Under the pieces are notes generated by a model that saw only the letters and a program-made list of their open reading frames with translations, had not been told where the DNA came from and ran no database searches. Below are positions 1,202-50,191 of a stretch of DNA of 64,000 nucleotides, in pieces. The translations under genes and the position numbers were made by a program. The number at the start of each line of letters is the position of its first letter. Position 1 is the first letter of the stretch. Where the stretch lies: the NCBI GenBank assembly GCA_030390025.1, contig CM059449.1, positions 17,050,001 through 17,114,000 of the forward strand. Direction: 5' to 3'. This DNA is from Squalus acanthias (Eukaryota).

Positions 1202-4200
1202 TCATGGCCAACGGATTACACCTGATAGATAAGAAAATTAACCAAATTATCAATTAAAATCAAATTAAATCGAAGGAGTAAGCGTTCGGAGTTTATTAAA
1301 AATGACAGGTTGCTCACGTTTCTTTCTGTCACCCACCTGTTTCATGGATCTCTGAGTAGAGCGGATCTGGACTGAAGCAAAAGAGGACATCAGAAAATTT
1401 AGGCATCCCAAACAATAAAATACATTAAAGAAAAAGAAAGTGGTTTTCTTTAAAAAAAAGTAGATCTATGTAAACAGTTACCTGGTGGGTTGCTGAAGAG
1501 CGACTGTGAGGAGAGAAAGACAAAGACAGAAATATTAAAGAGCTGAAGTTATTGATTATACCTGCAAGAAGCAACGGAAATAATTGGTATCGAAATAATT
1601 GAATCACATTTTGGGGGCAACTTTAACCAAACCCGCAGAGAAACGGACGGGATCGGGTGCAACGTTTTGAAGTCAAATGAGAGCAATATTGGGCGGGTCT
1701 AAACCCGGCGTTCCACCCGATACCCTGCGTTTCCCGCCCGGTGAGTTCGGATAAAATTATCAGAGAATTTGCCAACAACATGGAATTCAGTAGAGGTACA
1801 ATTAATGCTGTTACCTCTCTTACGATGCCGGCTGATAACAACTATGATTATGATGATGATGATGATCACGAGAGGCACCGCTACCGCTGCATAGACGAAT
1901 GGTTGGATCATTGGTGCGGACTCGCCGTGGCTGCTCTCTCCACCACCTGTGTGTAAATCTAAAGTTTCTTTTGTGAGACAGAGCAGTCAAGAGCAGGACA
2001 ATGGTCACATTGAGATTGAGGATCCGCAAATGGGACACAGATTCCCAATCCCCTTTGACATGCGGGGCTATTTCACACTGGCATACATCAAACTAGGCCA
2101 CGGATCAAAACGCAAAATGTCACCAGTGGGCAACAGGGGATATTCCCACCCTGGAAGTAACACTGGGGGAATTTTAATGTAGGGACGCTTAATGGGTTGG
2201 TGCCAGTTTCCTTTCATTTAAATAGCGGGGGGTGGGGTGGGGGTCGTGTGAGTTCTGTTAACATAGGAACATGAGGAGGCCATTCAGTCCCTACAGCCTT
2301 TTCCACCATTCAATGAGATCATGGCTGATCTGCGACCTAACTACATATAACCGCCTTTTGCCCCATATCTGTTAATACATTTGGTTAACAAAACTCTATC
2401 AATCTCCGATTTAAAATAAAAAATTGATCAGTTGTCGTTTGCGGAATAGAGTTCCAAACTTTTACCACCATTTGTGTGTGTAGAAGTGTTTCCTAATTTC
2501 ACCCCTGAAAGGTTTAGCTCTAATTTTTAAACCCTGGAGATCCAATAGGTCCAGAGCAAGAACGAGAAAATCTTCCCCTCGTATTTACGGGATGCTTAAG
2601 ACAAAACAAACATCTGGAAATTAGACGGGCCGAAACTGGGTGATCAACGTGGTTCTTCCGCGGACCAATCTTTGCATTTTGTTGGCGCAATGTTGTAATT
2701 TCTATTTACACACTCAACTATATCCGTCACTACCTTCATTTACAGCATGACAGTGAAATCTAACTTATCATACATGTGTTGTCCGGTTTATTCCCAATAT
2801 TGGTACGCGGTGATTTCAAGGCTCACATGTTGCTCTAATTACGGGGCTCCAGTCTTCGCCTCGCACACTGTAACTGGGTTGAATTCTTATCTATAGTCCT
2901 ACCTAAAATTGTATACAGCAACTGAATGTCATTAATATCCCCTCCATTTATTTATTTTAAAAGATCATTCTCGGGATACGGGCGACGCTGGCGAGGCGGG
3001 CATGTTATTGTCCATCTCTGCTTGACCCCTTCAGAAGGTGCTGGTGGGCCGCCTTCTTCTTGAACCGCTGCAGTCCGGTGTGGTGATGGTTCTCCCGCAG
3101 TGCTGTGAGGGAGGCAGTTCCAGGATTTTGGAAGGAACAGCGATACAAGTCCAAGTCAGGCTGGTGTGTGACTTGGCTGGGGACTTGGAGGTGATTATGT
3201 TCCCATGCGCCTGCTGCCCTTGACCTTCTAGGTGGTGGAGTTCGCGGGTTTGGGAGTTCCAATTGATCTGATGGAGAATTTACCTATACGGCCAATATTA
3301 CCCCCTAGTAAAATCCCACATGAATGCGTGCAATTTCATTGGTAAGAATATCTCCACCAATCCAAACTTACTCTGTTGACGCCGTTCCACGGTCACTGTT
3401 GTCCCGTGTCCCTCTGCTGCAGCGAATCCCACGAGCTGCACGTTGCAGAAATAGAACCCTGTATCTTCCGGTTTCAGCTGGATTATTCTAATGGACGCGT
3501 CTCTCCTCTGTCTGAAATCCTCTTCACTTGCCCCGAACACCCTGCCTCTGTATTCCGCTGTATTGTTGGAAACTTCATTTCCCTGTTTGGTGCCTCGGTG
3601 CCACGTGTAGCTGCCGATTCCTGTGGGACCCTCATATCTGCAGAGCAGGTCCGCTGTCTGTCCCGGGGTTTTGGTGAGTGATTGCGGGCTCTGAATTACG
3701 GTGATGTTTCCAACAGTAACTGCTGCAAGTGGGTAAAACAGACCATCTATAAATATACAGGGCACTTCTTTGCTTTAAAGCACGCCGTGGAAGGGCTGGT
3801 TTTAAGCAAATATTATTTCGGAGGATTTTTGATAAGGTATTCATGATCTTTAACTTGAGGGAATAAAAACAGAAAACACTGGAAACGCTCAGCAGGCCAG
3901 GCAGCATCTGTGGAGAGAGAAACCGAGTCAACGTTTCAGGTCGACGACTTTTCGTCAGAATTGGAAAAAGTTGGAGGTGTACCAGGTCTTAAGCAAGTGT
4001 AGGGGCAGGGAAAAGGGGGGAGGGGAGGAAAGAACAAAAGGGAAGGTCTGTGACAGAGTGGAAGGCAGGAGAGATGAAATAACACAAGGGATGATTGGGC
4101 AAGTAAAAAGGAGCTGGTAATGGGACAGGTAAAGAAACAAAAGATGGGTCTAGAAAAGGTTTAAATGGTTAACTTGAGGGATATTGGTGCTGGAGCTGGA

Positions 4201-6041
4201 GCGCCTTTGGTTTTTGGGCGCACTCCTCGGTCAAGTATAAAATGGATCTGGTACAAAGTACCTCTGACCCGTTCCAGATAATAAGCATTCACTTTAATTT
4301 CAGTTCTCCCGATATTCTTTCTGTGCTGCCCGCCGGTCTCATTAACACTTTGAGCGAGGGTGTGAAATGGGCAATCTCGAATTAAACGGCTTGCCCGATG
4401 TTCTCTTCCATTTGGGGGTCATTTTAACTTTAGGTGCTAAATGGTCGAGATCGGGTCGGCTGCCTGAAATTAAAATCGGGGCAGGTGTACACGGTCGCAC
4501 AAATTCAAAATCACCCCCAGGAAGTGAGGAGAAGTCTGATCTGATTAGTCTGATCAGATTGGAAGTCAGCTAGGTGCTAAACCCCAGCGACCTTCTCACT
4601 ATTAATCAGCGGTGACTGGAGATTATGGAAAATACAAACAGAATATTAATAGTCAAAATAATGAAACCGGCTAAATGTTACATGTACCGACATTACAAAT
4701 TGGATGAATGATTTCCCACTTTGGGTATATCTTGTACAATCGCCAATACCTCTTTAAAAACTGTTTACGGATCAGAGAAAATAGCCAATGCATTTGCGAC
4801 CTCATTGGAAGCAGCAAGCAGCGCAACTCTTGCCCTGTGTTGGTAAATAGAGAAAGGTTGTATCCAGTTAAATTACTGTAAATAATAGGAATTGAACAAA
4901 AAAAAGTCATGCCCCCTGGAAACGGGTCTTTACTTGAACACAGCCAGCACTGCAAATATTCACTATTGTGGATAGAGAATATTGGCATTTTTAGGTAGAT
5001 ATAATATCATAGAATCATAGAATAGTACAGCAGAGAAGGAAGCCTTTCGGCCCATCGAGTCTGCGCCGGCACTTTCGAAGAGCAATTCAGTTTGTCCCAC
5101 TCCCCCGCTCTTCCCCCTATCCCTGCAATATTTTTCATCATCAAATATTTGAATCTGTATCCACCACCCTATCAGGCAGAGTACTAGGGCAATCTGTACT
5201 TCAGGGAGCAACATACATTGTGCTCTCCTGGAACAAATACAATAAACCTCGTTATCCGAGAGCTGATCCGTCTCTCACGTTTAGCTCTCTCTATCTCTCT
5301 CTGTCTTCCTCAGTCTCTCTTTCTCTCTCTCACACACACGCACGATTGGAACCCATTTCTCTCTCTCTCTCTTTTCCTATTCCTATCCATTACTTGTTGA
5401 TTTAACCCGTCTACCCTCCCACTATTTCCAACCTTGATGCTGTCCTACGCCATGGGCCATGGGCCCTTCACTTAAATGCCTCAATTCAAAATAAGCAACC
5501 TCGAAAACGTTAGCTTCTCTGTGGCGAGCCCTGGTTAACTGCGAGATTGATTATATTACCAGCACAATAATCATTACCACGGCGCTGAGAAATGAAGATG
5601 GTTAATCTCGCGTCTATGAGAATGTCCGCACAAACCTGATGTTCTTTGAATTGCAGGCGAGCTGGTCATGAATATAAAATGGGTGAAATCCACAATCTGG
5701 TGCTGTGATCAGCAAATATGGGATATCGGAATAAGATTTAACCAGATACACATATAAGTAAGAAAAAATAGATGGGAGGACATCACTATGGCTCTTTAAT
5801 ATCTAATTAAGACATAGAATATTTTATTAAAGTCATTAAGAAATTATGGAAATTAAAATCAGTCCATTCCAATAACAGGCGGCCACTCCGCAACGCCAGC
5901 TTTACGCCCAGGCGGCAAGTTGAAAATCTACCCCATATTCTTGAATGGAGCTGATGTATCAGAAATAAGCTTACCGGAGAACATAGCGAATGCCCAGGTA
6001 ACTGCAGCCCAATTCATTCTCCCTTTCGGCGGCGATATCAT
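1202..6041 (-). CDS. NKp30/NCR3-like single V-domain receptor, gene 1 (inhibitory-type). Model: join complement(5975..6041, 3372..3722, 1815..1946, 1482..1503, 1337..1371, 1202..1221)
   Basis: All introns are GT-AG with consistent phases (1,1,1,2,1). Protein: MISPPKGRMNWAAVTWAFAMFS-AVTVGNITVIQSPQ...LLC...TW...DTGFYFCNVQLVGFAAAEGHGTTVTVERRQQ-SGGESSHGESAPMIQPFVYAAVAVPLVIIIIIIIIVVISRHRKR-VALQQPT-SPDPLYSEIHET-GVIRWP*. The last exon is the least certain. Confidence 0.8.
1337..1503 (-). CDS. Gene 1 cytoplasmic mini-exons (22 nt, 1482-1503; 35 nt, 1337-1371) encoding VALQQPTSPDPLYSEIHET
   Basis: Both exons have pyrimidine-rich acceptors and GT donors, with phases 1-2 and 2-1; YSEI motif. Confidence 0.72.
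1815..1946 (-). CDS. Gene 1 stalk/transmembrane exon (uncharged TM)
   Basis: 132 nt, phase 1-1, acacag/gtaac. TM FVYAAVAVPLVIIIIIIIIVVI is followed by the stop-transfer sequence SRHRKR. Confidence 0.85.
2262..2530 (-). mobile_element. CR1 LINE 3' fragment
   Basis: Antisense of the same 3' UTR (atcagccatgatctcattgaatggtgga) found at 18470-18530. Confidence 0.7.
2965..3260 (-). mobile_element. LINE 3' fragment, second family (also at 9555-10060, 13862-14180, 20676-21420, 63708-63952 on minus; 55926-56075 on plus)
   Basis: Shared block gagaaggtggtggtgagccgccttcttgaaccgctgcagtcc; the longer copies encode MEYSPLAWMSAAPTTLKKL (RT C-terminus). Confidence 0.75.
3372..3722 (-). CDS. Gene 1 Ig V-set (VJ-type) exon
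   Basis: 351 nt, phase 1-1, ttgcag/gtaagt boundaries. B-strand Cys, C-strand Trp, DTGxYxC and GxGTxVxV G strand; close in pattern to the NKp30 ASxxI...YxCxVxxxGxxxxxGxGT motif. Confidence 0.92.
3862..4168 (-). mobile_element. Penelope-like terminal repeat with a minimal hammerhead motif
   Basis: Minus strand tctgacgaaaagtcgtcgacctgaaacg followed by ctctctccacagatgctgcc; family copies at 14592-15250, 27010-27385, 32335-32690 and 56712-57080. Confidence 0.7.
5975..6041 (-). CDS. Gene 1 leader (signal peptide) exon
   Basis: ATG at 6041 (or 6017) reads (MISPPKGR)MNWAAVTWAFAMFS+G into a phase-1 gtaag donor; resembles the gene 3 leader (W..AM..G). Confidence 0.75.
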
Positions 6042-8812: not shown

Positions 8813-10404
8813 GTAACTCTTAAAAGTACAGGATTCTTTTTTTAAAGTTTGGCTAGAATAAGTAGCAAAAAAGCACTAATCATGTCGTGCCCGTCGAAAG
8901 CGCTCTGCAAGTGAAAGGCATGCTGTTGGATTTACACAACTGGGCTCAGCACCATTCCGTGACATGTGGCCAACACATGTTCATGTTTCAGACAATTGCC
9001 AGGCACTATTCATTTAAATCAAACCTGAGTACTATCACCGGTTCTCATTTACAAACTCTGCGCCCTCTAAGTTCAGTCTAATAAATTTGTCATTGTTTAA
9101 ACAGGTGCAAGATGAGTTTCAATCCCCCGGGTGCGTAAACACCCACTGAAATTAGTGAAGGATGAAACTGAACTGCGAGGCGTTATTCCTTTGTTTCAAT
9201 GTTCCGCTTGTGTAATGTTAAAGTAGTGCTTCTTTCTTAAGTATTCTTAAAATATGACGTTTCCGACTACAATTGGAAAACGTGCGTAGTGAACAGAGTT
9301 CCTCTGTGCTTTGTTAAACCACCAGTAGGTTTCGTCATATAAGTGAACGTCTGCTGAGGGATGTTTGCTAAACTTAACAGCACTTTCGGACGCTGCAGGT
9401 CAGATGTTAGCTCGTAGTGTTCTGCGGAGCAAGAATGAAAATGCCTCCTATTCGCATGTGGAAGTTGTTGAATTAACGGAACATACTTTTGCCTGTCGGT
9501 GAGCCGCTGTCTTCTGATGTACACATTTTAATGTTTTTTCGGTCTTTTTAAATTCGCTTATGGGTTCTGTGCGTCGCTGGCAAGGCCAGCATTTATTGCC
9601 CATCCCTAGTTGCCGTTGAGAAGGTGGTGGTGAGCCGCCTTCTTGAACCGCTGCAGTCCGTGTGGTGAACGTTCTCCCACAGTGCTGTTAGGTAGGGAGT
9701 TCCAGGATTTTGACCCAGCGACGATGAAGGAAGGTGTGTGTCTTGGAGGGGAACTTGGAGTTGGTGGTGTTCCCATGCGCCTGCTGCCCTTGTCCTTCTA
9801 GGTGGAAGAGGTCGCGGGTTTGGGAGGTGCTGCCAAAGAAGCCTTGGCTAGTTGCTACAGTGCATCTTGTAGATGGTACACACTGCAGCCACGGTGCACC
9901 GGTGGTGGAGGGAGTGAATGTTTAAGGTGGTGGATGGGGTTCCAATCAAGTGGGCTGCTTTGTCCTGGATGGTGTTCGAGCTTCTTGAGTGTTGTTGGAG
10001 CTGCACTCATCCAGGCAAGTGGAGAGTATTCCATCACACTCCTTACTTGTGCCTTGTAGATGTTGGAAATTCTATATTTATTAAGGCGTACGATTATTTG
10101 TTTGGGCAGGTTGTTTCCTTATGCGGAACTAATATATAACGAAGTTACATTGTGTAAAAAAAACGGTTTTATTTTATTATGCTGTGTTACTTTGCGTTGA
10201 ATCCACCATTTCAACGGTATAAGCTTTTTATCTTTCGGGGAACTTTATATTATACAATTAACGTTCTCTTCCATGCAGATGCTGTGAATTTGCATTTTAC
10301 AATTAACATAATTAATAGGGCCTACTAAAACGTACTTATGGAAATAAATTAACTCACGGACTCCTAAATGACTGTGTTGCACATGGAATTATCTGACATA
10401 TAAT

Positions 10405-11144
10405 GGCCCAAAAATTAGTCCCGCTACGCGAGAGTACGCACTGCGTACTCTCGCGTATTCTGTCACCAATTGCCGGTTTTCTGCATGCACTGCGCATGCG
10501 CTGAAAACCGGCACTTGGTTTTTGGAAAAGGGGGCGGTTCCTCGGTGCACCGCGTGCGCGCTAAAGGCTGCGCGCACGCTGTGCACTTAGTGCTTTGAAC
10601 GCGCAGGTAAGGACGGAAGATTTTAGAAATGAAAAAAGGAGGAGTAAGACCCACTTTTAACAAGGTAAGTAGTGAATTAAGTATTATTTTGAATTTTTTT
10701 TAACAGGTATATCGTTTTTAGAGACTTTAAAGACAGGTAAGTTTATTTTTATAACTTTTTAAAAGATTTTAAATTTTTTCAAAAATTTTAATTTTTATTT
10801 AAAATGGTTAATTTATTTAACTATACTTATTTTATTAATGTGATTTTTTTTTAAATTTAATTGAGGTTTAGCTGTTATTTTGGGTGTGTGTAAGATTCAT
10901 AGCTTTCACAGCACGTATGTGAAACTTATGAATGGAAGATGGTGTGCTGCCATTGGCTCTAACTGAGTCACGTGATCCAACAGCTTGCACGAATTCACTA
11001 CGCCGGTGGGATACGCAAGCACTGCCCAGCTGATGTCTCGAACATCAAGTTCGTGCGAGCTGGATCTGAAAAAGCCAACGCGGAGTGAGAGATCGCGGGG
11101 AAGCCTTACCCCCGCGTCAACACTTAGCCTTTAATTTCTGGGCC
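10405..11144. mobile_element. Putative non-autonomous DNA transposon (MITE-like)
   Basis: Terminal inverted repeats ggcccaaaaatta / taatttctgggcc (12/13 match), GC-rich palindromic subtermini, AT-rich core. Confidence 0.5.
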
Positions 11145-12029
11145 TATATCTTCTACTCGACAATTCAACGTCTTTGCGTTCGACACAATTTATTCTATTC
11201 GCAAAAAAATGATATTCAACCCGTTTCCAAAAGTTCCCATACTTACACTTGACATAATAGAAGGGACAGATTTCCTTCTTAAATGATTAAAGATGACAGA
11301 AGTGAAAACTGCCCCCAGTAGGAGGTTGAAATAGAAATGAGTTGGGGAGTGGTGATTATATTATGTCAATACAAAGTAAACAAACTGCGTGAAAACACAG
11401 CAGATCCGCCTTTATATAGTGACAATTGCCTCTAATTTTTGCACTATATAGGTTCTGAATGTACACAGCTGTTCAATCTGATTATGGACTGCAATTTCCC
11501 AAAGTTCCGTTGAGAAACTGGAAAAGGACCCAATGTAATGACAGCTGAATACCGGTTTGTAGCTCAATGATTGATGGATCAATCAGCATTTTAAATTCTT
11601 CATAATAGCTTGTAAATTGTGGGACACAAGAGATCATTATATCCAAAAAAAACCTGTCCCTGTTTCACAGATCAATGCTTCTTTCTCCAGAAACACACCT
11701 GCTGTCTCTTGAATCTATTTGTACTGCCCACTCCCACGGCCGTCTCCAGTAACTTGTTCCACAAATCCCTTACTCTATAGGCGAACAATTTCCGCCTAAC
11801 TTCCCTTCTTACAGCTAACTAGTTAACGTCTAAAGTGTGACCCTTGGAAATTAGATCCTTCCCCACAGTGACCGATCTATCTGGGCTCAATTCATAATAA
11901 TTGTACAACGTTAATTGACAGGTTGCGGTATTTCATGTACGATACATTGATTCGAATTTATTCCAACAAAAAAGGACACCCTGTAACATCAATTAGTAAT
12001 AGTGAAAGATACTTTAATTTGAGCTTCAC

Positions 12030-12857
12030 CCCTCGTGGCAGATGACAATTCACGCAGGAAAGTGCGAAGTGTTGCATTTAGGTAGGAAGAACGAGGAGAG
12101 TCAATATCAACTGAAGGTAACGATCCTAAATGGCCTGCATGAACAGAGAGACCTGGGGGCACATGTGCACAAATCATTGATGGTGGCAGGGCAGGTTGAG
12201 AAAGCGGTTAACAAAGCATACGGGATACTGGGCTTCATAAATAGAGGCATAGAGTACAAAAACAAGGAAGTTACGATGAACCTTCATAAAACACTGGCTC
12301 GGCCTCATCTGGAGTATTGTGTCCAATTCTGGGCACCACACTTTAGGAAGGATGTGAAGGCCTTAGAGAGGGTGCAGAAAAGATTTACAAGAATTGTTCC
12401 ATGGATGAGGAAATTCAGTTATGTGAATAGACTGGAGAAGTCGGGGTTGTTCTCCTTGGAGCAGATAAGGTTGAGAGGAGATCTGATAGAGGTGTTCAAA
12501 ATCATGAGAGCTCTGGACAGAGTAGATAGAGAGAAACTGTTCCCATTAGTGGAAGGGTCGAGAACCAGAGGATATAGGTTTAAGGTGATTGGCAAAAGAA
12601 CCAAAGGCGACATGAGGAAAAACTTTTTTACGCAGCGAGTGGTTAGGACCTGGAATGCACTGCCTGAAAGTGTGGTGGAGGCAGATTCAAACGTGGCTTT
12701 CAAAAGGCATTTGGATGAGTACCTGAAGGAAAAAAATGATGGGCTACGGCGAAAGGGCGGGGGAGTGGGACTCGCTGAAGTGACCTTGCAGAGAGCCGGC
12801 ACGGGTTCGGTGGGCCAAATGGCCTCCTTATGTGCTGTAAAAATTCTATGATTCTCT
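12030..12857 (+). mobile_element. CR1 LINE 3' end immediately upstream of the gene 2 V exon
   Basis: ORF 12042..12851 (KCEVLHLG...RPHLEYCVQFWAP) plus an attctatg tail. Confidence 0.92.
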
Positions 12858-12917
12858 ACTGGTCTGTAATTCTGTAGGTCACTTTTGACAGATTGCATTG
12901 TTCCATTTATACTCCAG

Positions 12918-13255
12918 ACAATGGGTTGATGAGTGGAATCAGAGTGTTCCAGTCCCCAGATGCCATCAATGTAATAGAAGGAGGATCGGTACAGCTGAAC
13001 TGCACTTTTGAAGCGAATAATACTGTCGGACGAGTTGTTTGGAGGCGGGCCTCACAAAACATGGAAGTGTCGGTTCGGAATCCTTTCTATCAGAGCCGGA
13101 TAACGAAGTCAGGGTCGAAATTGTTTGCAGAAAAAATGGCTTTCATTGAAATGATCAATTTACTGACAATGGACTCGATTTTTACTACTGCGAGGTGGAA
13201 ATTCCGGCGCTTGGGAAAGCAAGCGGGACAGGAACACAACTTATAATAACTGACA
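12918..13255 (+). pseudogene. NKp30/NCR3-like gene 2 V exon with a 1-nt frameshift
   Basis: ctccag/gtgagt boundaries; 338 nt, one short of 339. IRVFQSPDAINVIEGGSVQLNC...VW...DS, then a frameshift at ~13177-13183, after which the other frame reads FYYCEVEIPALGKASGTGTQLIITD. Confidence 0.88.
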
Positions 13256-14591
13256 GTGAGTAGAAAAGATCAGAGTTCGTTTTAAGGATTTACCAATATT
13301 TTGACATTGGTATGGCTGTACATGTGCTATGCAAAGAGATTTTAGTTCGGTTGCTGAATTGTGTCCGTGTGTCAATATCACTTTCAAAGTACATCGGGAA
13401 CAATTGGTCGACAATTAATATCCTGAAAGTGCCGTATATCTGACTTGAATCTGGCTATTCAAGGCGCGATGCTTTAGGAATAGGAATACACGAGCTTCAG
13501 GCTACTCCCCCATCCCCCACCACCACACCACCTGAAGGTGAGTGTTATTTCAAAATAGTACTTCGCATTATCCCTTGATTTTCTTGCTTGGCACCTTACC
13601 TTACCTCTGTTAGGGCAGCTATGTTCGTCCCTGTTTTACAAAGCTAATCAGACCGAGCTTTTCTAGTCTTTTGTTTCTCTCATAACCTAGCACTAGAACA
13701 CGAGGGAACAGGAGAGCGTTCACTCCACCTCCGGGACTTGCATGTCTCCCTTGAGCCTGAGTGACCAGAACTAAACACAATACTCAAGATGCCATCTGAC
13801 CCGAGCGGTGTACGGTTGGATCCCCACACCATATAAAAGAAAATATGATTTCTGTATTTTTTATTCGTTCCTGGGATGTTGGCGTAGCCCAGCATTATTG
13901 CCCATCCCTAGTTGCCCTTGAGAAGGTGGTGGTGAGCCGCCTGCTTGAACGGCTGCAGTCCGTGTGGTGAATGTCCGCCCACAGCGCTGTTAGGGAGGGA
14001 ATTCCAGGATTTTGACTCAGCGAGGATGAAGGATCTGCGATGTACTTCCAAATTAGGCTGGTGTGTGAATTGGAGGGGAACTTAGAGGTGGTGGTGTTCC
14101 CATGCGCCTACTGCCCTTGTCCTTCTATGTGCTGGAGGTCGCGGGTTTGGGAGGTGCTTCTGAAGAAGCCTTGGCGAGTTTAATGAAATAGGCTTTAGGT
14201 GTAATTTACTGTTTTCGATATAAGCCTTTATTTTAAACAGGTTAGCGTCTTGGTTAAAATGAAGGGAATTTGCACGCTAGTATTTCAACAAATAATTATA
14301 GTTTTTTTTCAGTTTCCACGTGGATTCAATACCTCAGATTACATATAAAATAGGAAACGGCCTTTCTTTAACGTATAGAACGCCACTGGAATGATATTTC
14401 AGTTTTCATATCCTTTCACTGAGCAATCCAAATTTAATTATTAAATTGCGCACTAGTGGCCTTCATTATGGCGATTTCTGATTTCAATTGATAGGCGGAG
14501 AGTGGGAGGCGGGGCAGTGTGATCGCCTGATATACACTCCGCCCAGTAATGCGTCCAATTGCCTTAAAATAAAACTGAATATTGGGCGCAC

Positions 14592-15250
14592 CAAAGCCAA
14601 ATGCTGCGGATGCTGGTAATCTGAAAAAAGAAACAGAAAATGCTGGAAAATACTAAGCAGGTCAGGCAGCATCTGTGGAGAGTGAAAAACAGAGTTAATG
14701 TTTCAGGTTTCTGACAGAAGGGCATCGATCTGAAACGTAAACTCTGTTTCTCTCTCTCCCTGCAGATGCTGCCTGACATGCTGAGTGTTTCCAGCATTTT
14801 CTGCTTTTTATATTGAATATTGGGCGAGTTGTACAGCGGTCGGCCAATATGTTTCTGTCTGCCTTGAGAGCATGTCCATGTCCAATTTCACCCCTACAAC
14901 AACACAAAAGCCAAATACTGCGGATGCTGGAAATCTGAAATAAAAACAGAAAATGCTGGAAATTCTCAGCAGGTCAGGCAGCATCTGTGGAGAGAGAAAC
15001 AGAGTTAACGTTTCAGGTCGATGAGCCTTCGTCAGAACTGGAAAAAGTTGGAGATGGAACAGGTTTTTAAGCAAGTGTAGGGGCCGGGAAAGGGGGGAGG
15101 GGAGGAAAGAACAAAAGGGAAGGTCTGTGACAGGATGGAAGGCAGGAGAGATTAAAGAGACAAAAGTGATGATGGTGCAATGCAAGAGGAGATGGTAATG
15201 GGACAACTTAAGAAACAAAAGATGACTCTAGATGAAGTATAAATGGCAAT
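14592..15250. mobile_element. Penelope-like terminal repeats (inverted pair 14636-14803 plus a minus-strand copy 14905-15250)
   Basis: Arms cagaaaatgctggaaa...tttcag / ctgaaacg...tttccagcattttctg; hammerhead core at 15009-15038. Confidence 0.7.
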
Positions 15251-15347
15251 GGCAGAATGATCGACCACCCCACCATTTTCTTGCATTATCTTTCACTTCA
15301 ACCAAGCGCCACCATACTGACTATATTATTGTTTCTGTTTCTAACAG

Positions 15348-15469
15348 GAGCTAGAGTCGAGCCTATCTGCCATTTCCCCACACTTAGCGCTGGATTACAA
15401 GTTACAAAAACGGAGCTGCTGATCATTCTCATAATCACAGGCCTGACGACGTACCTCTGTCCCACGTAG
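15348..15469 (+). pseudogene. Gene 2 stalk/TM exon (Lys in TM)
   Basis: Acceptor tgtttctgtttctaacag, phase 1. RARVEPICHFPTLSAGLQVTKTELLIILIITGLTTYLCPT*; the frame continues GKKYYDL* after the TAG. Confidence 0.6.
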
Positions 15470-15694
15470 GGAAAAAAATACTATGATTTATAACAAGATA
15501 CATCTGCAAACGCTGTAGGACAAGATGTCGAAAGTCGATGTAAATTTTATCAGGAAGTTCTTTAAGTTGCCCATGGTCGATATCTTTGTGTTACAGCATT
15601 GCATCGATGTGGAGTAAAGCATGGGCGATGATAGATATCGTTTTTATTACAAAATATTTCAATTAAAGTTACTGCAGCTTCAAAATAATAACTA

Positions 15695-18558
15695 TGAATT
15701 AGCTGCGCAAATAGAGGTAAACGAATATGATTTGATTGGGATTACTGAAACATGGCTCCAGGGTGGCCAAGGCTGGGACCTCAACATCCAGGGGTACTCA
15801 ATATTCAGGAAAGATAGGAAAAACGAAAAGGAGGTGGGGTAGCAATGCTGGTTAAAGAGGGGATTAACACACTTGAAAGGAAGGATATTAGCTCTGATGA
15901 TGTGGAATCTGTATGGGTTGAACTGAGAAATAACAAGGGGCAGAAAACGTTAGTGGGAGTGATATATAGACCTCCAAACAGTAATGCGGAGCTTGGGGAT
16001 GGCATTAAAAGGGAAATTAGAGAAGCGTGCAATAAGGGCACAGCAGTCATCATGGGTGACTTTAATCTACATATAGATTGGGCTAACCAAATTAGTAACA
16101 ATACTATGGAGGAGGAATTCCTGGAATGTTTACGGGATGGTTTCCTGGACCAATATGTCGAGGAACCAACCAGAGATCAGGCCATCTTAGACTGGGTATT
16201 ATGCAATGAGAAAGGGTTAATTAGCAATCTTGTTGTGCGAGGCCCCTTGGGTCGGAGCGATCATAATATGATACAATTCTTCATTAGGATGGCGAGTGAA
16301 GTAGTTGAATCAGAGACTAGGGTCCTGAATTTAAATAAAGGAAACTTCGATGATATGAGGTGCGAGTTGGGTAGGATTGATTGGGGAATGTCACTCAAGG
16401 GGTTGACGGTGGATAGGCAATGGCAAACATTCAAAGACCGCATGGACGAACTACAGAATTTGTTCATCCCAGTTTGGCATAAGAATAAAACAAAAAGTGT
16501 GACTCAACCGTGGCACAAGGGAAATTAGGGATATATAAGAACCAAGGAGAGGGCATATAAATTGGCCAGAAAAAGCAGTAACCCTGAGGATTGGGAGTAG
16601 TTTAAGATTCAACAAAGGAGGAGAAAGGAGGACAAAGGGATTAATTAAGAAGGGGAAAATAGAATACGAGAGTAAGCTTTCAGGGAACATAAAAACTGAC
16701 TGTAAAAGCTTTTATAGATATGTGAAGAGAAAAAGATTAGTGAAATCAAGCATAGGTCCCTTGCAGTTAGAATCAGGGGAACTTATAATGGGGAACAAAG
16801 AAAAGTCAGCCAATTAAATAGATATTTTGGTTCTGTCTTCACAAAGCAGGACACAAATAACCTCCCAGAGATGTTGGGGAACATAGGGTCTGGTGAAAGG
16901 GAGGAACTGAAATAAATCAGTATTTGTAGGGAAATGGTGTTAGGGAAATTGAAGGGATTGACAGCCGATAAATCCCCAGGGCCTGATAGTCTACATCCCA
17001 GGGTTCTTAAGGAAGTGGCCCTTGAAATAGTAGATGCATTGCTGATCATCTTCCAACATTCGATGGAATCTCAAACAGTACCCATGGATTGGAGGGTAGC
17101 TAATGTTACCCCACTATTCAAAAAGGGTGGTAGAGAGAAAACGGGGAATTAAAGACTGGTAAGCCTGACATCGGTAGTGGGGAAAATGCTAGAGTCCATT
17201 ATAAAAGAAATAATAGCTGAGCACTTGAAAAACAGTGACAGGATCGGACAAAGTCAACATGGATTTACAAAAGGTATATCATGCTTGTCTAATCTACTGG
17301 AATTTTTTGAGGATGTAACTGGTAAAATAGATAAGGGAGAACCAGTGGATGTGGTGTATTTGGACTTCCAAAAGGCTTTTGATAAGGTCCCGCATAAGAG
17401 ATTAGCGTGCAAAATTAAGGCATATGGGATTGGGGGCAAGGTATTGACTTGGATAGAGAACTGGTTGGCAGACAGAAAGCAAAGAGTTGGAATAAACGGG
17501 TCTTTTCCGAGTGGCAGGCAGTGACTAGTGGCGTACCGCAGGGATCGGTCCTTGGACCCCAGCTATTCACAATATATATTAATGATCTAGACAAGGGAAC
17601 TGGATGTAATATCTCCAAGTTTCCAGACGACACAAAACTGGGTGGGCGTGTGTGCTGCGAGGAGGATGCCGAGAAACTCCAGTATGATTTGGAAAGTTTG
17701 GGTGATTGGGCAGAAGCGTGGCAGATGCAATATAACGTGGATAAATGCGAGGTTATCCACTTTGGTGTCCAAAACTGAAAGGCAGATTATTATCTGAATG
17801 GCAATAGATTGGGAGAAGGGAACGTGCAACGAGACCTGGATGTTCTTGTGCACCAGTCGCTGAAGGTAAGCATGCAGGTGCAGCAGGTGGTTAAGAAGGC
17901 AAATGGTATGTTGGCCTTCGTAGCGAGAGGGTTTGAGTACAGGAACAAGGATGTCTTGCTGCAGTTGTACAGGGCCTTGGTGAGACCACACCTTGAGTAC
18001 TGTGTGCAGTTTTGGTCGCCTTATCTGAGGAAGGATGTTCTTGCCATGGAAGGAGTTCAGCGAAGATTCACAAGGCTGATACCTGGGATGGCAGGAATGA
18101 CGTATGAAGAGAGATTGGGTCGATTGGGCTTATACTCGCTGGAGTTTAGAAGAATGAGAGGGGATCTCATTGAAACTTATAACATTCTGACAGGACAGGA
18201 CAAACTAGATGCAGGAAGGATGTTCCCGGTGCTCGGGGAGTCCAGAACCGGGGGTCACAGTCTAAGGATAAGGGGTCAGCCAGTTAAGACAGAAATCAGG
18301 AGGAATTTCTTCACCCAGAGAGTGGTGAACCTGTGGAATTCTCTGCCACAGAAGGCAGTAGAGGCCAATTCATTAAGTAGATTCAAGAAGGAGTTCGATA
18401 TATTTCTTAAGGCTAAAGGGATCAAGGGATATGGGGAGAAAGCAGGGACAGGGTACTGAGTTTGGATGATCAGCCATGATCGCATTGAATGGCGGAGCAG
18501 GCTAGAGGGGCCGATTGGCCAACTCCTGCTCCTATCTTCTATGATTCTATGATTCTAT
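15695..18558 (+). mobile_element. CR1 LINE, near-complete disrupted ORF2 (APE endonuclease + RT)
   Basis: IGITETWL, GVIYRPP, MGDFN, SDHN; YLDFQKAFDKVPH, GVPQGSVLGP, FPDDTK; (attctatg)n tail. Confidence 0.95.
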
Positions 18559-19104: not shown

Positions 19105-22100
19105 CCCTCGAACCTGCACGCTTACAACGATCAGTGATATATTGAAGTGCAGATCAATCTTCTCTTTATCTCTCTATTTAATTGACGTGCATTTAGATAT
19201 TCAATCCACTGACATCTTTTTCCGTTTTCCGTTTTGATCTCAAAGCAATATTGCGCCTTGCAGGAACATTATTTTTAATGGTGAGTATTAGTTAGATGCA
19301 TTTAACTGTTCGATTTTTTTAAATAGTCCTTGAAGCAATTTTTTTTAATGAGCAATTATTGTTAGTAAAGGACTTCAGTAGTTGCGCTGATTTTTATTGC
19401 TGGATGTACAGAAGAGGTACATACAATTTTAATCTCATTTCACATTATCAAATGTCTTGTTTGCATCAAAGGATAGACCTTAATTTTCGGCTTTCATCCC
19501 CACAGAGTTAGCTCCACAAGCACAAAGGTTGGTTGGTGGTTATGAGGGTGAAGCATTTTTTAAATTACCTGGATTTTTGTTTCAGCTATGTGATGTATCT
19601 TTTCTCTTCCCAGACCCTGGATGGACATCGCTGGTTCCGCCTATGATGACATTAATCCAGCTGGTGAGTGACGCACCTGCAGAGCAGTTAACCTGCTCCT
19701 CAATGGACCGGTTGCTTCAGAGCCTACATGCACTGCCCGGTGTACTCCTGAGTCACCAGTGCCAGAGAGATCCCATGGTTAGATCCGTGAGATGTGCCGA
19801 ACTAACTGATCTTACTCTGGCTGGTGATTGGGTGCTAAGGTGGCCGGAATTTTAATCGGGAGTCTGGTTGGGTGCAGGGTGGAGAGGCTGGCTGGGAGCT
19901 GTGAGGTGGGGAGGGATCAGGTGCGGGCCGGAGGTGAGGTTGGGTTGTCGGGGGCCGGAGGAGGATTGGGGAGGAGGGAGGGAGGGAAGCATCGGGGCCG
20001 GAGCGTCGAGGAGGTGAGGGAGAGAAGATCGGGGCAGGAGCCTTGGGTGGGGTGGGGGTGGGGGGGGGACAGGGAAAGAATATCGGAGCCGGAGCATCAG
20101 GGGAGAAGGGAGAGAACATTGGGGTTGGAGCCTGGGGGCAAGGGGGGATCGGGAGAAAACATCTGGGGGGCGGGGATCTGCTTCCACCATCCTTTCAGGC
20201 CGTGCTTTCCCTATCATAACAACTCACTGCATGAAAAAATTCTCCTGAACTCCCCTCTGGTACTTTTGCCAATTATCTTGAATCTGTGTCCTCTGGTTAC
20301 CGACCCTCCCGCCAGTGGAAACAGTTTCTTGTAATCGAACTGTTTTTAAACAGATTGCATTAACGTTACAAAGCTTTCATGGTGAACTTTTACTTTTGTA
20401 GATGTTCCTCCACCACTTGGAATGTCGGTAAATCTCAGAGTTAACGTTTCCTACATCTTTTATGCTAATTTCTCTTTAACTCTGCAGTAACACTCATTTT
20501 ATCTTATTTGTTTGTCGTCCCGAAGGAATGAGCCGTTCTGTGATGAAACTAACTTAGATGGTGAGCACCACCGATTAAAGAATCATTTAACAAGATTCAA
20601 TAAGTCTTCAGTATTATACGTGTGTGAATAGCTCAGGATCAAACTCAGTAGCTTGCTGTTTGCTATTTTTTTAATATTCGTTCTTTGGATGTGGGCATCA
20701 CTGGCAAGGCCAGCATTTAATACCCATCCCTAATTGCCCTTGAGAAGTTGGTGATGAGCCGCTTTCTTGAACCGCTGCAGTCCGTGTGCTGAAGGTACTC
20801 CCACAGTGCTGTTAGGGAGGGATTTCCAAGATTTTGAGACAGCGACGATGAAGGAACAGTGATATACTTCCAAGTGAGGATGGTGTGTAACTTACAGGGT
20901 AACTTGGAGGTAATGGTGCTCCCATACGCCTGCTGCCCTTGTTCTTCTAGGTGTTACAGTTCGCGGGTTTGGGAGGTACTGCCGAAGAAGCATTGGCGAG
21001 TTGCTGCAGTGCATCTTGTCGATGGTACACACTGCAGCCACGGTACACTGGTGGTGGAGGGAGTGAATGTTTAATGTGGTGGACGCAATGCCAATCAATG
21101 GGTTGCTTTTTCCTGGATGGTGTCGAGCTTCTTGAGTATTGTTGGAGCTGCACTCATCCAGTCAAGTGGAGAGTATTCCATCACACTCCTGACTTGTGCC
21201 TGGAAGATGGTGGAAAGGCTTTGGGAAGTCAGGAGGTGCGACATTCGCCGCAGAATACACTACATCTGGCCTGCGCTTGTAGCCACATTATTTATGTGAC
21301 TGGTCCTGCTAAGTTTCTGGTCAATGGTGACACCCCCAGGATGTTGATGGTGGGGGATTCAGCGATGGTAATGCCGTTCAATGTCAAGGGGCGGTGGTTA
21401 GACTCTCGCTTGTTGGAGATGTAATATTCTTCACCTTGTGCTGTTGGACACGGGGCAATATTAACCTAACCTGACCATCGGGAAACTGACGAGATCGGGT
21501 GCAACGCCGGCATTACATGCCGCTCGATTTTACTCTCCAGTGAAGTCAGTGGAGGGTAATATGGGGCAGGGGGTGTAAAACCGGAGTTCCACCCGATCCC
21601 GTGGGTTTTCCTGGCCGGCCTTAGGCTAAAATTACCCACGGTATCAGCAGCGAGCACTGCTGGAGCGCTATTGAATTACAGCACCGGTTAGGAGGAGCGA
21701 AGCGTCCCCCCTGCACTGTACTAACGCTATATTTTAGCCACAATCTCTGAAGAATACCTCTTATTGGATCAGTATGACATCGCTTTTGATTTGTTGGGCA
21801 GCTACACATCATCCCTTTAATGCTTCATTATATTCAGTTCAACCACGCCCGCTGGATGCTGGATGTCCTAAACTATCTTTACACATTGCCCCTCTAGACA
21901 GGGATAAAGGGCACCCTCACCCGGCAGTTAGAGTTGGAATGAAACTGGTCGCATAATGAAATGGGAACCGACTGCAGTGAAACCTTCCCACTCCCACTCC
22001 CCTTAGATAAACAATTATTAATTATTATTGAAAAATGATAAAAACCAAGACGCAGTTAAGAATGCAGCTGTGCTAAACACAGTCTCAGATATAACAGAGT

Positions 22101-22269
22101 TAAGAATTTCTTGTTTGTTCATTGTCTTTCCACAGACTTCTCTCCACCTTTGCAATGATGCGTAGATATCACTGTGACATTTTGCTGCCTTTATTTTCAT
22201 GGCACGTACCGCGTGTCCTCCCTTTGTGGTTCAGTGATGAAGAGGTCTATGCCGAAATCCCCCCGCATG
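19105..22269 (+). pseudogene. Array of four cytoplasmic mini-exon pairs: 19105-19129/19246-19280; 19506-19527/19614-19663; 20402-20423/20526-20560; 22136-22157/22235-22269
   Basis: Sizes 25/35, 22/50, 22/35 and 22/35 nt, phases 1-2/2-1 as in gene 1. Products: xLEPARLQRNIAPCRNIIFN, ELAPQAQRPWMDIAGSAYDDINPA, DVPPPLGMNEPFCDETNLD, DFSPPLQCDEEVYAEIPPH. Several splice sites are mutated (cacgg, atcagt, atgcgt). Confidence 0.68.
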
Positions 22270-25715: not shown

Positions 25716-26785
25716 TCTCCTTCCGTATGAAAAAATAAGATACTTTCCCTGTTCGCTATATTAACGGTCGGATTTGCTGTGTAACCAGACCACATGCTTG
25801 TGGCTATAAACATTATGCACAGTGAATGTTTTCATACTGACATAAAATTTAGTGCGATTATTTTGCTCTTCGTCCCGAGCCATACTTTCGATTTCCTGCA
25901 AAGTTGCTTCCTAGAACCGTCCTTTAAACATGTAACAACAGTCAAATGTTCAGATCCGAATGTTCTCTTTGTTGTCAGATATTATTGAGATGGTTGGCTC
26001 CGTAGATGTTAACGGTGTGCTATATAAACTTACAGTTACTGAAATTCAGACATAGAATGTATTTATTGTTTCTGTAGAAAAACCCCCATGTCAGGTAAAA
26101 ACGAAAAGTTCCTCAGAGCGAAAAATGCCACTTTTGAACTCACTATAAAAGCCTATACATTTTTGGAAAAAGGGAAATCCATTATGCAAACCGAGCCACT
26201 GTCCCCTATTGTGAGACAAATCCAACCTAACAACAACTACTTGCATTGATAAAGCGCCTTTTATATAGTAAAACGTCCCACAGGCTTCACAGGAGCGATT
26301 ATCCATCAAAATTTGACACAGAGCCACATATTAAGACAGAGGTAGGCTTTAAGGAGCGTCTTAAAGGAGAAATAGCGAGGTAGACAGGCTTAGGGAGGGA
26401 ATTACAGAACTGAGGACCCAGCCAGCTGAAAGCCTTCTCATCCAATCGCTTAATCCACTATCTCTCTGGAAGCGCATTTAACAGTGGTCTTGCAGTACGG
26501 CAGCCTCAGCTAAGCAAAACAGTTCGCGGTACCCTTGGATGTGACAGCAGCAGTGGAGCTTGGGGACCAAGCTGTCAGTCAGAATACAATTGTACTGAGG
26601 CAACCAGGTGTGAGACCACCTCTAGCAAAGGGACGAGCATGGCCAATCCGCTTCATAATCTCGCAAACATGTGCGCCATTCTCGTGAAATCTCCTCTCCT
26701 CCTAAGAAAAACATGGCCAAACTCTATAACTTTCCTTGATAACATATTATTAAGTTTGTTCCTGAACTGTTTCCCTTTTCCTGAA

Positions 26786-29710: not shown

Positions 29711-31059
29711 CACCTTTGGGGGGAGGGGGGGGCGGTGAAATTGATCATTGGCGAAGCCGCAAAACAGGTGGAATCGCATATACTACTGATAATCAATTCC
29801 ATTGATGTCAATGGCGTTGAATATCGGTCGCAGCGTATAACAGGGGACCCATGCAAAACCGCCTGTTTTCCGTCCCTGCCCATGTCAAATTTCAAGCCCA
29901 CCCTCCATATTTCTTGTTTGCCCCTGTTAACTTTCTCAAAGGCAAGAATATTTGTCCTGTGATTGGGTGACCAGAAAAGATCACGTGCTGCTCCGGATGG
30001 ATTCTGATTTCTGAATTAATAGTTGGCTTTATGCTTTCCTTTGCTTTAATAAAGAGAAAATGTAAACCTTACCTATATTTCTAAGTTATAAGCCTAGAAA
30101 TTGTACGTCGTTATTGAAGTAACAACACTTAAAACCATTCGGTACTAAATCTCTCTAAGAGAGATTTTTAATCCATTTATGCTAAAGGTCCTGTGCCTTC
30201 CTCAAGTAACAGGCAATGAAATTTGATGGAAGTGCTTTAAGCGTTTTAATGATAACATAACATCTGGGGGACATTATATGTAACAAAGGAGCAAACCGAT
30301 TCTGTATAAATAAGATATTAATTTCATTCAGCATAGTGCATAGGAGAAACGGTCCCTTATATTACATTTCAAGCTCTTGTGTAATCATGTCTAATGTTTG
30401 GTCAGAATTTTGCCAGCTGTGTTTTATTCAGGTTTAATAGATTCGTTGATCTTCGAATTTTTCACAAATTTTCCTTCATTTCGTTCTGTGGTGAAGTTTG
30501 TAATATGTTTTATTACTTTAACATAAACAGAATGAAAACATATTTAAACCATATGCAACAGTGAAGAAGAAAACAACATAAAATATGGGACCTGCATTTG
30601 GAAGGGACTGCAATGAGGAATTCGGTATAAACAGCTCCACAAGTGTAAAGTGTAAAGATTGTGCTTTTTCACATGACTCCTGCAAACTATCTAATCCATC
30701 AAATCTGTTTCGGGGTGATTGCAAAGATGTCTCTGGCAATGTTGGTCAAGCATAAAATCTGTAAATAACAGTTTGTTAAAAGTTTCAATGATGATTCAAT
30801 TAATTGATAAAACATAATCTGATTAATCTGCTTGCTAGAAAAATGGTATCTTGATCACAGATTGCACACCGTGTCTTACTATCACAGATAGCATCCCATT
30901 AATCGTAAGATATTATTGATTTAGGCCCTATTTTATCTTTTGAATATGCCAAAGAAATCATTAATAGATCAGAAACAGCACTGATCTCCCACAGAAATAT
31001 AGACCGACTGGTAAAATGGGCAGTCTGATTTTTGGATGCCCCCAGCAGGAAAATCAAGC

Positions 31060-32334: not shown

Positions 32335-32924
32335 ACAAAAGCAAAATACTGCGTATGCTGGAAATCTGAAATAAAAACAAACAATGCTGGGAATACCCAG
32401 CAGGTCAGGCAGCACCTGTGGAGATAGTAACAGAGTTAACGTTTGAGGTCGATGGTACTTCGTCAGAACTGGAAAAAGCTGGAGATGTAACAGGTTTTTA
32501 AGCAAGTGTAGGGGCAGGGAGAGCGGGGAGGGGAGGAAAGAACAAAAGGGACTTTCTGTGATAGGATGGAAGGCAGGAGAGATTAAGAGACAAAAGAGAT
32601 GATGGTGCAATGCCAAAGGAGATGGTAATTGGACAAGTTAAGAAACAAAATATGATTCTAGATGAAGTGTAAATGGCACTGACTGAATGATCGATGTGAG
32701 AGAGAATTTTTTTTTTTTAAAGATAGGGGCAGAGGTTATGGTCTGAAATTGTTGATCTCGATGTTGAGTGCATCGGGTTGTAAAGTACCTGATTGAAAGA
32801 TGAGGTGCTGTTCCTCGGGCTTACGTTGTGCTTCATTTGAACAGTGTAAGAGGCCGAGGACGGAGAGGTCAGAGTGTGAGTGGAGCGGAGAATTAAAGTG
32901 ACAGGCGACTGGAAGCTTGGGGTC
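32335..32924 (-). mobile_element. Penelope-like element 3' part (GIY-YIG C-terminal half + terminal repeat), split by the ERV; the upstream half lies at 40411-40520
   Basis: Minus 40520->40411 reads VYCICCS*CDLLYIGETKRKLGDRFAGHLRSVR; minus 32924->32740 continues DPKLPVACHFNSPLHSHSDLSVLGLLHCSNEAQRKPEEQHLIF. Confidence 0.8.
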
Positions 32925-33445
32925 TGTCGAAGTATCAACTTCCGATTCAAGACTCTTGTAAACAATATCGTCAAAGAAGGCTTTTTATTATATTTTACTT
33001 GCAAGGAGACTGCAACCATAGCCCAATTAGCTATGATGACAGACTGCCGAATCACAGAAAATGGAGTATTCTTATACAGTATAATATCACATGACATGTT
33101 GTTTAAGGTAAGCTAAGTTAACAATTAGAAAAAACACGTTAGAAATGCCTTACAATGAGACTAGCTAATCTCTATAAAATGGAGTCTCTCTATTTTACTT
33201 CTCTCACCAAGGCCAAGGCGCCTGGTTTGTTTACTTTACTAGCCCTTGGTTATCTCAATATTAAGCCTGTTTTCTTTTGTGCAGGCAGACTTTTGCTGGC
33301 AGCATAGTCTAAGACTTTTAAGTTATTTTCAGAAAAGAACATAACAATGGATTTTTTCCCTTTTCCACACAAGTCAGAGTCGGCCATTTTATTAGTTTAA
33401 ATTCAAGGAAACCATTTTGTCCGAGACAGAAACTGCACTTCCACA
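32925..33445 (-). repeat. ERV 3' LTR
   Basis: TGTCGAAG...TTCCACA; adjacent ttccccccttttttg is the polypurine tract on the minus strand. Confidence 0.92.
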
Positions 33446-33794
33446 TTCCCCCCTTTTTTGTCCTCTAGGACAAAATAGCTCAATTTAACTTTTTCGGTCT
33501 TTTTTGTCGGTTCCTGTACCAAATTTGGATTTTGGCCAGGGATGCCAACTTCTTTTCTGTTTTAACCATCCTCGGGATTATACCTGTACTGATGGCTGAC
33601 CTTATTTAAGATCGTCCTTCTTCTCTGCCTAGTCTCGGTGTTTGGGCGTATGTTCTTGCAGGGGTTTTAGTTTTGTTTTGGTGACTGTGGCGTACTTTTG
33701 TGGTTCATTAGTCTGCTGTTCTCTAACTTTTCCTGCAGCTTTTACTAGCCTGCAGTTCAGGTGTCGCTATACACCCTCTAAGGTGATAGGGTAC

Positions 33795-33935
33795 AGCAGC
33801 TTATAGAGGAGTTCTATGTCATGGCCCACACAGTTTATGCCTAACCTGTGGGGTTCTCCTAGGGAACTGCAGCTTATAGAGGAGGACTGATTCATGACCC
33901 ACACAGTTTATGCCTAACCTGTGGGGTTCTCCTAA
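33795..33935. repeat. ~73-bp tandem duplication in the ERV 3' untranslated region
   Basis: gcagcttatagaggag...cccacacagtttatgcctaacctgtggggttctccta occurs twice. Confidence 0.85.
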
Positions 33936-34277
33936 GCACAAGTGCTTCTACGTGAGCCTCCAGAGTGCGGACCAAGTGATATACAAGGTCGATGTCACCG
34001 GCAGTTGAAAGGAGTCCTCTCTCTTTCCCTAGCCTGCAGATCCCATTGATGGCTGGAAGAATGTTTACCGAAAGTGGGGAGCATGCAAAAATGTATATAT
34101 ATCTATATGTATATTTTGTCTAGGTTGTCTAATCATCAAAATTGTATTTTATTCAATCGCCTCAGTTCCTCCCCGAAGGGACCATACTTTTCTTCTTCGT
34201 CATTTATTTCTTTCTGTTTCATTATACTTACTTCAGGTATGACTACCTTGCCTAACCTATCAAATCTTTTAATCATC

Positions 34278-34872
34278 TTAAACACCTCGATCAGGGTTCA
34301 CGTTGGTGTGGAAAACGGTAAAACCCATCTGATTGTCAGTATTCAATCGTTTAGTCCCATTCCATGGTCTGTTATTAGTCAAATTCATCAAACTGGTAGT
34401 ATTGAACCACCAGCTTTCCATGGAACTTCCTGCCTTGTACGTAATAAACTTTTGTATGCAACGACTTTTCCCCATATTAACTCTGTTCCCTTTAGTCTGT
34501 CCTAGATTTTCTAACGAATATCCTCCCCCCTTAAACTCGTTTCTTAGGCTAGACCACTTTTGTTCCCATTCTTTCCCGAAGGTGGATAGGGTGGTATCCT
34601 TCTGTTTCGTATGATTTTCATTAATGATCCATTCTGCCATATCTGTGAGGTTCAAGGGTATCGGTCGCAGAGGTATTCCTCTTTTCACATGGGTAGGAAT
34701 ATGGCTACATACCCAACAGGCGTTTATCCCACTTTTTTTTGGCATACTTATATGACATATACAAAAAGGTGTTCATATGTAAGTCTCGTTTCTTTCGGGG
34801 TTCTTTTCGTCTTCCTTGGCAGGCTATACATATCAGTCCGATTAGTAGGTAAAACGTAAATAACAGCTTCAT
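34278..34872 (-). pseudogene. env: ERV env remnant (signal peptide and SU N-terminus)
   Basis: Frameshifted MKLLF..TFYLLIGLICIACQGRRKEPRKKRDLHMNTFLYMSYKYAKK/SGINACWVCSHIP (CxxC motif); no TM subunit seen. Confidence 0.72.
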
Positions 34873-34897
34873 TGTTTAAGTCTTTTCAAATTCAAAT

Positions 34898-35650: not shown

Positions 35651-35657
35651 TCAAAAT

Positions 35658-50106: not shown

Positions 50107-50191
50107 TGAGAGGTCGCACAACACCAGGTTATAGTCCAACAGTTTTATTTGAAATCACAAGCTTTCGGAACTATCGCTCCTTCCTCAGGTG
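50107..50191 (-). mobile_element. Single-arm copy of the same Penelope-type repeat
   Basis: Minus strand cacctgaggaaggagcgatagttccgaaagcttgtgatttc; flanked by duplicated ttttctat. Confidence 0.7.

Follow-up and report, generated by a model that had tools for sequence, protein, structure and literature searches.

The eight micro-exons between positions 19,105 and 22,269 of the window (the whole analyzed stretch of 64,000 nucleotides, i.e., 17,050,001-17,114,000 of Squalus acanthias contig CM059449.1, here called C26) are very probably the cytoplasmic-tail exon pairs 2-5 of a shark receptor of the NCR3/NKp30 family, which is headless and decaying at this locus. On the same reading, complete copies elsewhere on C26 encode a receptor with a single V domain, an uncharged transmembrane (TM) segment and a tail of five units, which likely originated by tandem duplication and is predicted to be a docking scaffold with multiple phosphotyrosines.

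The window is part of an NCR3-like gene cluster

The genome of S. acanthias has a size of 3.7 Gb and is LINE-rich. The window contains three V-set exons, human NKp30 was the best PDB match for each of them, and relatives in several sharks bear the name NCR3-like; thus, the locus belongs to a shark-type NCR3 cluster. A search for paralogous V exons revealed at least 68 NCR3-like exons (a lower bound, with 150 of the 497 candidates scored), all of them on C26 between 13.47 and 17.14 Mb. Many members carry lesions, and the region has the appearance of a birth-and-death cluster. Sixteen of 50 MHC class I domain matches were also found on C26, at 30.7-38.4 Mb; they are alpha-2 exon-like, belong to the weaker-scoring ones, and are located 14-21 Mb from the cluster. 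The strongest class I matches were on small contigs, and a genome search for MHC class II yielded no match anywhere.

Gene 1 represents a second tail-bearing subtype. As the earlier note had stated, it has a 22/35 pair, and one such pair was present in all 17 near-full-length copies of this type, the TM/tail regions of which are near-identical. The tyrosine position of the pair is occupied by Tyr in 15 copies and by Asp and Cys in one copy each. Within the approximately 5.4 kb fetched per copy, the 41-nt exon was found in 15 of 17 copies and a terminal exon with two ITIMs (LQYATL and VLYASV, both fitting the consensus) in 11 of 17. For gene 1 itself both exons lie just left of the window, and this ruled out that it ends straight after its pair. 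Gene 3 has a V exon that is 88% identical to that of gene 1, its TM contains an Arg (VRAAVI), and a long tail was not seen. Together with the two-ITIM gene 1 it looks like an activating/inhibitory receptor pair.

Table 1. Features of the window and related loci. Positions refer to the window unless C26 is given.
Feature	Position	Strand	Remarks
Gene 1	1337..6017	-	leader 6017-5975; V ~3720-3380; TM 1946-1815
Gene 1, 22/35 pair	1503-1482 and 1371-1337	-	PLYSEI
NCR3-like pseudogene of another subtype	9441..15469	+	upstream of the tail
Its leader	9441-9498	+	TAA at 9474
Its V exon	12918-13255	+	1-nt frameshift
Its possible stalk exon	13481-13538	+	Pro/Thr-rich
Its putative TM exon	15348-15469	+	Lys-bearing, ends in stop
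LINE	15618..18558	+	2.9 kb; reverse-transcriptase/endonuclease ORF pieces; 3' end at breakpoint
Pair 2, first exon	19105..19129	+	25 nt, phase 1-2; acceptor GG and donor AT, both broken; AG/GT in C and D
Pair 2, second exon	19246..19280	+	35 nt, phase 2-1; PCRNI, Cys at Tyr position
Pair 3, first exon	19506..19527	+	22 nt
Pair 3, second exon	19614..19663	+	50 nt; SAYDDI (C/D SAYDEI)
Pair 4, first exon	20402..20423	+	22 nt, Pro-rich; donor weakened, last base G to T
Pair 4, second exon	20526..20560	+	35 nt; FCDET; complete copies IYDEP/IYDES
Pair 5, first exon	22136..22157	+	22 nt, Pro-rich; donor AT broken, window copy only
Pair 5, second exon	22235..22269	+	35 nt; EVYAEI
41-nt exon after the pairs	25979..26019	+	phase 1-0; donor CT broken
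Terminal exon	30531..30581	+	PYATV, basic end, then stop; matches end of horn-shark isoform X4
LTR-retroelement-like stretch	33787-40100	-	integrase-like ORF pieces 34898-35650; 73-nt tandem repeat
Gene 3	59292-59972	+	V and TM
Copy C	C26 ~15.447-15.464 Mb		complete, 1.6 Mb from window
Copy D	C26 ~14.994-15.010 Mb		complete plan, 2.0 Mb from window; stop in last exon
Locus E	C26 15124600-15128700	-	two V exons
Paralog F	C26 14916930-14919690 (~14.917 Mb)	+	V, TM and one pair

The micro-exons form pairs in a fixed phase

The exon coordinates, the sizes of 25/35, 22/50, 22/35 and 22/35 nt, the phases (1-2 and then 2-1) and the short inner introns, all proposed in the earlier note, were borne out, and its motifs SAYDDI, EVYAEI, PCRNI and FCDET as well as PLYSEI of gene 1 were located in the sequence. 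The introns within the pairs have lengths of 116, 86, 102 and 77 nt, those between the pairs of 225, 738 and 1575 nt. The proposed typical cassette of 57 nt applies to the last two pairs, but not to the first two, which comprise 60 and 72 nt. When the joined pairs were aligned with the tail of the horn-shark protein P0010, 48 of 79 aligned residues were identical and the score was 234. The maximum for 4276 slid copies of the exon layout was 58, and, thus, the pairs are not a chance finding. An ad hoc pair scanner found no pair in 10 shuffles of the plus strand of the window, and over 501 kb of real sequence it gave 19 rows, of which 18 were post-TM pairs; it is strict, i.e., at its threshold it detects one of the four pairs in the window.

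Alignment to the complete copies C and D identified the four pairs as pairs 2-5 of a five-pair tail. The earlier note had missed the 41-nt exon and the terminal exon, as well as the absence of a fifth pair and of the whole 5' half.

Complete copies in the dogfish cluster and an ortholog-like protein in the horn shark

Two DNA searches each revealed five copies of the tail in the genome, i.e., the window copy and the copies A, B, C and D. Paralogous receptors with exon runs of the 22/35 type, for which the earlier note had proposed a search, thus exist, and C and D are complete. In both, leader and V are followed by an uncharged TM, the five pairs, the 41-nt exon and, at the end, an exon with a YxxV motif; the additional unit in comparison to the window is pair 1 (22/44 nt). 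AG/GT splice sites are present at every exon of the complete copies, and in copy C an open frame extends from the ATG through five pairs, the 41-nt exon of phase 1-0 and the PYATV exon to the stop. The tail of the complete receptor has about 133 residues and five tyrosine motifs. A single-exon VJ-type V with NKp30 as best PDB match is present in D, for which the top four PDB matches were all human NKp30 (E ~1e-13), and in gene 1; the tail in the window has no V.

An ortholog-like protein exists in another shark, and the condition under which the earlier note would have been refuted, i.e., no ortholog in any shark, did not apply. The horn-shark proteins XP_067865360-9 have leader, V, TM and five units as in the complete copies, and 81 of 133 residues are identical between the tails of copy C and P0010. 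The motifs of the five units in C and the horn shark are FYEGI/IYDDI, PCSNI/PCSNF, SAYDEI/SNYDEI, IYDEP/IYHDI and EVYADI/EVHSDI, followed by PYATV/LYSTV in the terminal exon. The five-pair expansion seems to be older than the split from the horn shark. C and D differ at 4 of 246 exon positions (1.6%) and 58 of 3055 intron positions (1.9%), a comparison of little power; because this divergence is flat and includes only four exon differences, it is the horn-shark match that argues for constraint on the complete copies. In the V tree, D and gene 1 fell into a clade of 14 rows together with named shark NCR3, the inner forks of which were open. The branching between C/D and P0010 was not resolved, and thus their orthology is based on tail and TM. 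The horn shark was the one other species matched in a tail-only protein search, which was a weak search. Among the tails shown for the best 150 representatives none resembled the five-pair tail, and unrelated repeat expansions do occur. Tandem tail repeats, in some cases with one Tyr per repeat, were seen in the fish Ig receptors P0049/P0164 (horn shark), P0145, P0108 and P0142, showing that tail-repeat expansion recurs.

The earlier note had assigned one tyrosine to each module. This was not the case: four of the five pairs carry Tyr in the complete copies and three of five in the horn shark, in which the motif position of unit 5 is occupied by His. The two Cys-containing units it described are both present in the window, but they have different origins. 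The Cys of unit 2 is old, because it is shared by C, D and the horn shark, and the Cys of unit 4 is recent, because the TAT-to-TGT change is confined to the three headless copies. The motif of pair 3 is the sole ITIM-like motif that is preserved in both species.

The horn-shark proteins are predicted RefSeq models, and nine isoforms were compared. Their differences sit on predicted junctions, i.e., 3-nt shifts at two junctions and a varying last exon; the TM exon is skipped in three of nine models, and a stop directly follows pair 5 in one of nine. Seven of the nine end in an apparent antisense LINE piece. The C-terminus of isoform X1 was considered as a tail exon and rejected, as it matched only LINE-like antisense frames. 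The five-pair gene is thus an example of a gene model that annotation pipelines treat poorly. Within the dogfish cluster, paralog F has a V that is 61% like that of D, an uncharged TM and one strong, Tyr-less 22/29 pair; further strong tail exons were looked for there and not found.

Taken together, the cluster combines activating-type and tail-bearing receptors, and one subtype has a five-fold two-exon tyrosine unit that is conserved in the horn shark.

Predicted signalling and the question of module skipping

The TM of the complete receptor is without charge, and therefore it must signal through its tail. It differs from the activating NKp30 type of mammals, which has a charged TM and a short tail, while C and D have an uncharged TM and a long tail. 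Only one of the five tyrosine motifs of C (SAYDEI) fits the ITIM consensus S/I/V/L-x-Y-x-x-I/V/L, and most motifs of the five-pair tail are without its hydrophobic -2 residue. The tail also does not have the ITAM arrangement (YxxL/I-x7-YxxL/I, exon border in the first module), as its tyrosines are about 19 or more residues apart and the exon border does not fall within the motif. Acidic Y-D/E-x-I motifs belong to the typical substrates of Src-family kinases and are typical SH2 docking sites. Upon clustering by a ligand, Src-family kinases would phosphorylate the acidic Y-D/E/A-x-I motifs, and the phosphorylated motifs would recruit SH2 adaptors. All five units would be included constitutively, and tuning would take place on the evolutionary scale, with Tyr codons being gained or lost. 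Such a constitutively spliced, adaptor-like phosphotyrosine scaffold is the moderately likely case, and we lean towards a co-receptor of the adaptor-like kind and away from a classical ITIM receptor. With this gene, signalling by an NKp30 relative that has no charged TM becomes amenable to testing.

Tuning by module skipping, as had been proposed, would mean that regulated loss of whole pairs leads to cell-specific tyrosine numbers. Each pair has phase 1-1, so the frame would survive the loss of a pair, the introns are short within and longer between the pairs, and several splice sites score weakly. In addition, other exons of the horn-shark gene are used alternatively in the models, and the isoforms of a related horn-shark receptor differ by an indel of 14 residues in the tail. 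However, none of the nine horn-shark isoform models drops a pair, and regulated skipping is thus rather unlikely. Similarly doubtful is a wider scheme, according to which the fixed-register cassette of the shark NKp30 family is a rheostat, with the signal strength set by its number (1 versus 5), by the skipping of whole cassettes in particular cells and by the identity of one codon (Tyr, Cys, His, Asp, Asn), and according to which non-rearranging VJ receptors had signalling tails of their own before NKp30 was reduced to the adaptor-coupled form of mammals.

The five units likely arose by tandem duplication

The sequences argue that a single two-exon unit was likely duplicated in tandem to give the tail of five units. 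This agrees with the duplication of exon pairs proposed earlier: all 17 gene-1-type copies have one pair versus five here, and the Tyr/Cys codon has a fixed register, as in gene 1 and in each of the five units it begins at a distance of 22 nt from the end of the second exon. The mutual identity of units 1-5 is 20-29 of 55 aligned bases versus about 14 after shuffling, with p<0.05 for 10 of 10 pairs, although the base-shuffle null ignores common coding constraints. The gene 1 pair showed a weak likeness to the five units (18-23 of 55 bases; p<0.05 in three of five cases).

Alternatively, the five pairs could be old, independent tail exons that are alike through common constraints and not through tandem duplication. 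The intron cores would agree with this, as similarity was found in none of the 10 comparisons, and so would the varying sizes (22 or 25 nt for first exons; 35, 44 or 50 nt for second exons) and the modest likeness of the peptides. In contrast, the identical phases, the common codon register in all units and gene 1, and the sister subtype, in which exactly one pair precedes the same 41-nt exon, make independent exons improbable. With tandem duplication, the tail represents a clean case of the multiplication of a signalling motif via exon-pair duplication on a ligand-binding receptor.

The gene-1 copies, with one pair, 41-nt exon and terminal exon, and related proteins suggest a family plan of TM, n pairs of the 22/35 type, 41-nt exon and terminal exon. 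Pair number differs between the subtypes on this plan: the gene-1 subtype would have n=1, and the subtype described here n=5. In related proteins, with junctions placed from the protein sequence only, the equivalent position is Tyr in nurse shark and lungfish, Cys in catshark and Asn in horn shark.

The window copy is a decaying fragment

The copy in the window is an unprocessed pseudogene fragment in neutral decay, because essential exons are absent, disabling lesions are present and exons diverge like introns. Neither the leader, V and TM of C/D nor their pair 1 has a match in the window. Homology to C/D begins at 18559, directly after a LINE that we take to be CR1-like, and the sequence upstream differs. 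The copies A and B have the same headless layout. The decay claimed in the earlier note is evident from four broken splice sites in the window copy (Table 1); copy A has an in-frame TAA and a broken acceptor, and copy B a 1-nt deletion. Between headless and complete copies the divergence is 7.3-8.6% for exons and 8.7-9.4% for introns, among headless copies it is 2.4-4.5% and 2.9-4.2%, respectively, and none of the 10 tests of exon versus intron divergence was significant.

It is very improbable that assembly or haplotype duplication explains the three headless copies. The region consists of repeat-rich segmental duplications with some stretches of up to 99% identity, but the introns differ by 3-4%, and each copy has private repeat insertions as well as private lesions.

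A V gene of another subtype is located upstream of the tail. Its possible stalk exon and putative TM exon are both conserved beside D, and in C and D its counterpart sits head-to-head with the complete gene. The TM is unlike that of its V homologs in horn shark and catshark, and P0002 and P0003, homologs of the upstream V, have a different TM and tail without a match in the region. Splicing of the tail onto this V exon to form a new chimeric receptor would fit the common strand and the recurrence of the layout in A and B, where the V frame is open, but this reading is largely refuted and hardly credible, as the leader has a stop in the window, A and B, a frameshift disrupts the V of the window, no TM resembling that of the complete copies lies between 15469 and 19105, and the tail has four broken splice sites and neutral divergence.

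The window copy has two insertions of its own, 10401-11152 and 13615-14145. The former, an element of 750 nt, occurs elsewhere in the cluster at paralog-specific positions and is possibly a recently mobile non-autonomous element. Locus E shows the mirror event of the break between V and tail: here a CA repeat links a V of the five-pair subtype to a body of the gene-1 type, which comprises a V with a stop, a TM and a pair with Cys, and the result is a chimeric two-V gene without a five-pair tail.

Comparison with known receptor systems

The NCR3 family of the nurse shark (QTT61898 / MT914154-61) was reportedly described by Kinlein et al. 2021 with eight published subtypes. It resembles the dogfish genes in its single VJ-type V exon and its multigene cluster, and the QTT61898 tail has one pair-like unit, PLYADM, as in the gene 1 subtype. 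The V of the five-pair subtype (copy D) is 48% identical to QTT61898, versus 74% for the V of gene 1. Shark NCR3 genes have been published, and accessions are given in the accessible part of PMC12227049. Human NKp30, the best PDB match of both shark V types, carries an arginine in its TM and lacks a signalling tail, and its tail is varied by splicing, according to an excerpt of PMC6514059. The five-pair subtype differs by its uncharged TM and the long tail with five tyrosine motifs.

Multiplication of a two-exon tyrosine-motif unit is also seen in TCR-zeta and in Xenopus laevis FcR-gamma, which obtained a second ITAM from an added exon (accessible part of PMC4536121). In these ITAM chains the first YxxL of the two-tyrosine ITAM is interrupted by the exon border (same excerpt), whereas the shark units each contain a single YxxI that is encoded completely by the second exon, are spaced by about 19 residues, and are part of a ligand-binding receptor. 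Tail-exon number varies among the paralogs of bovine WC1 (CD163 family; 4, 5 and 6 small tail exons; excerpt of PMC2681482) and of the Xenopus XFL receptors (1-5 small tail exons; excerpt of PMC2413239), and tyrosine motifs are present. Their ectodomains are different, and the excerpts do not mention a repeated symmetric exon pair. As far as these excerpts go, duplication of tyrosine motifs by a two-exon unit (ITAM chains) and different numbers of tail exons among paralogs (WC1, XFL) are already known. A description of the five-pair tail was not found in the literature covered, which did not include Kinlein et al. 2021 and its supplements, and the accessible parts of PMC10751288, PMC11599192, PMC11372145 and PMC10450919 contain nothing on it. 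Also for these exact tyrosine motifs no paper was found.

Other elements of the window

The LTR-retroelement-like stretch has duplicated flanks near 32700-33100 and 39700-40080. The region 41700-55300 contains about seven tandem 2-kb units of LINE fragments, which are visible as repeating ORFs.
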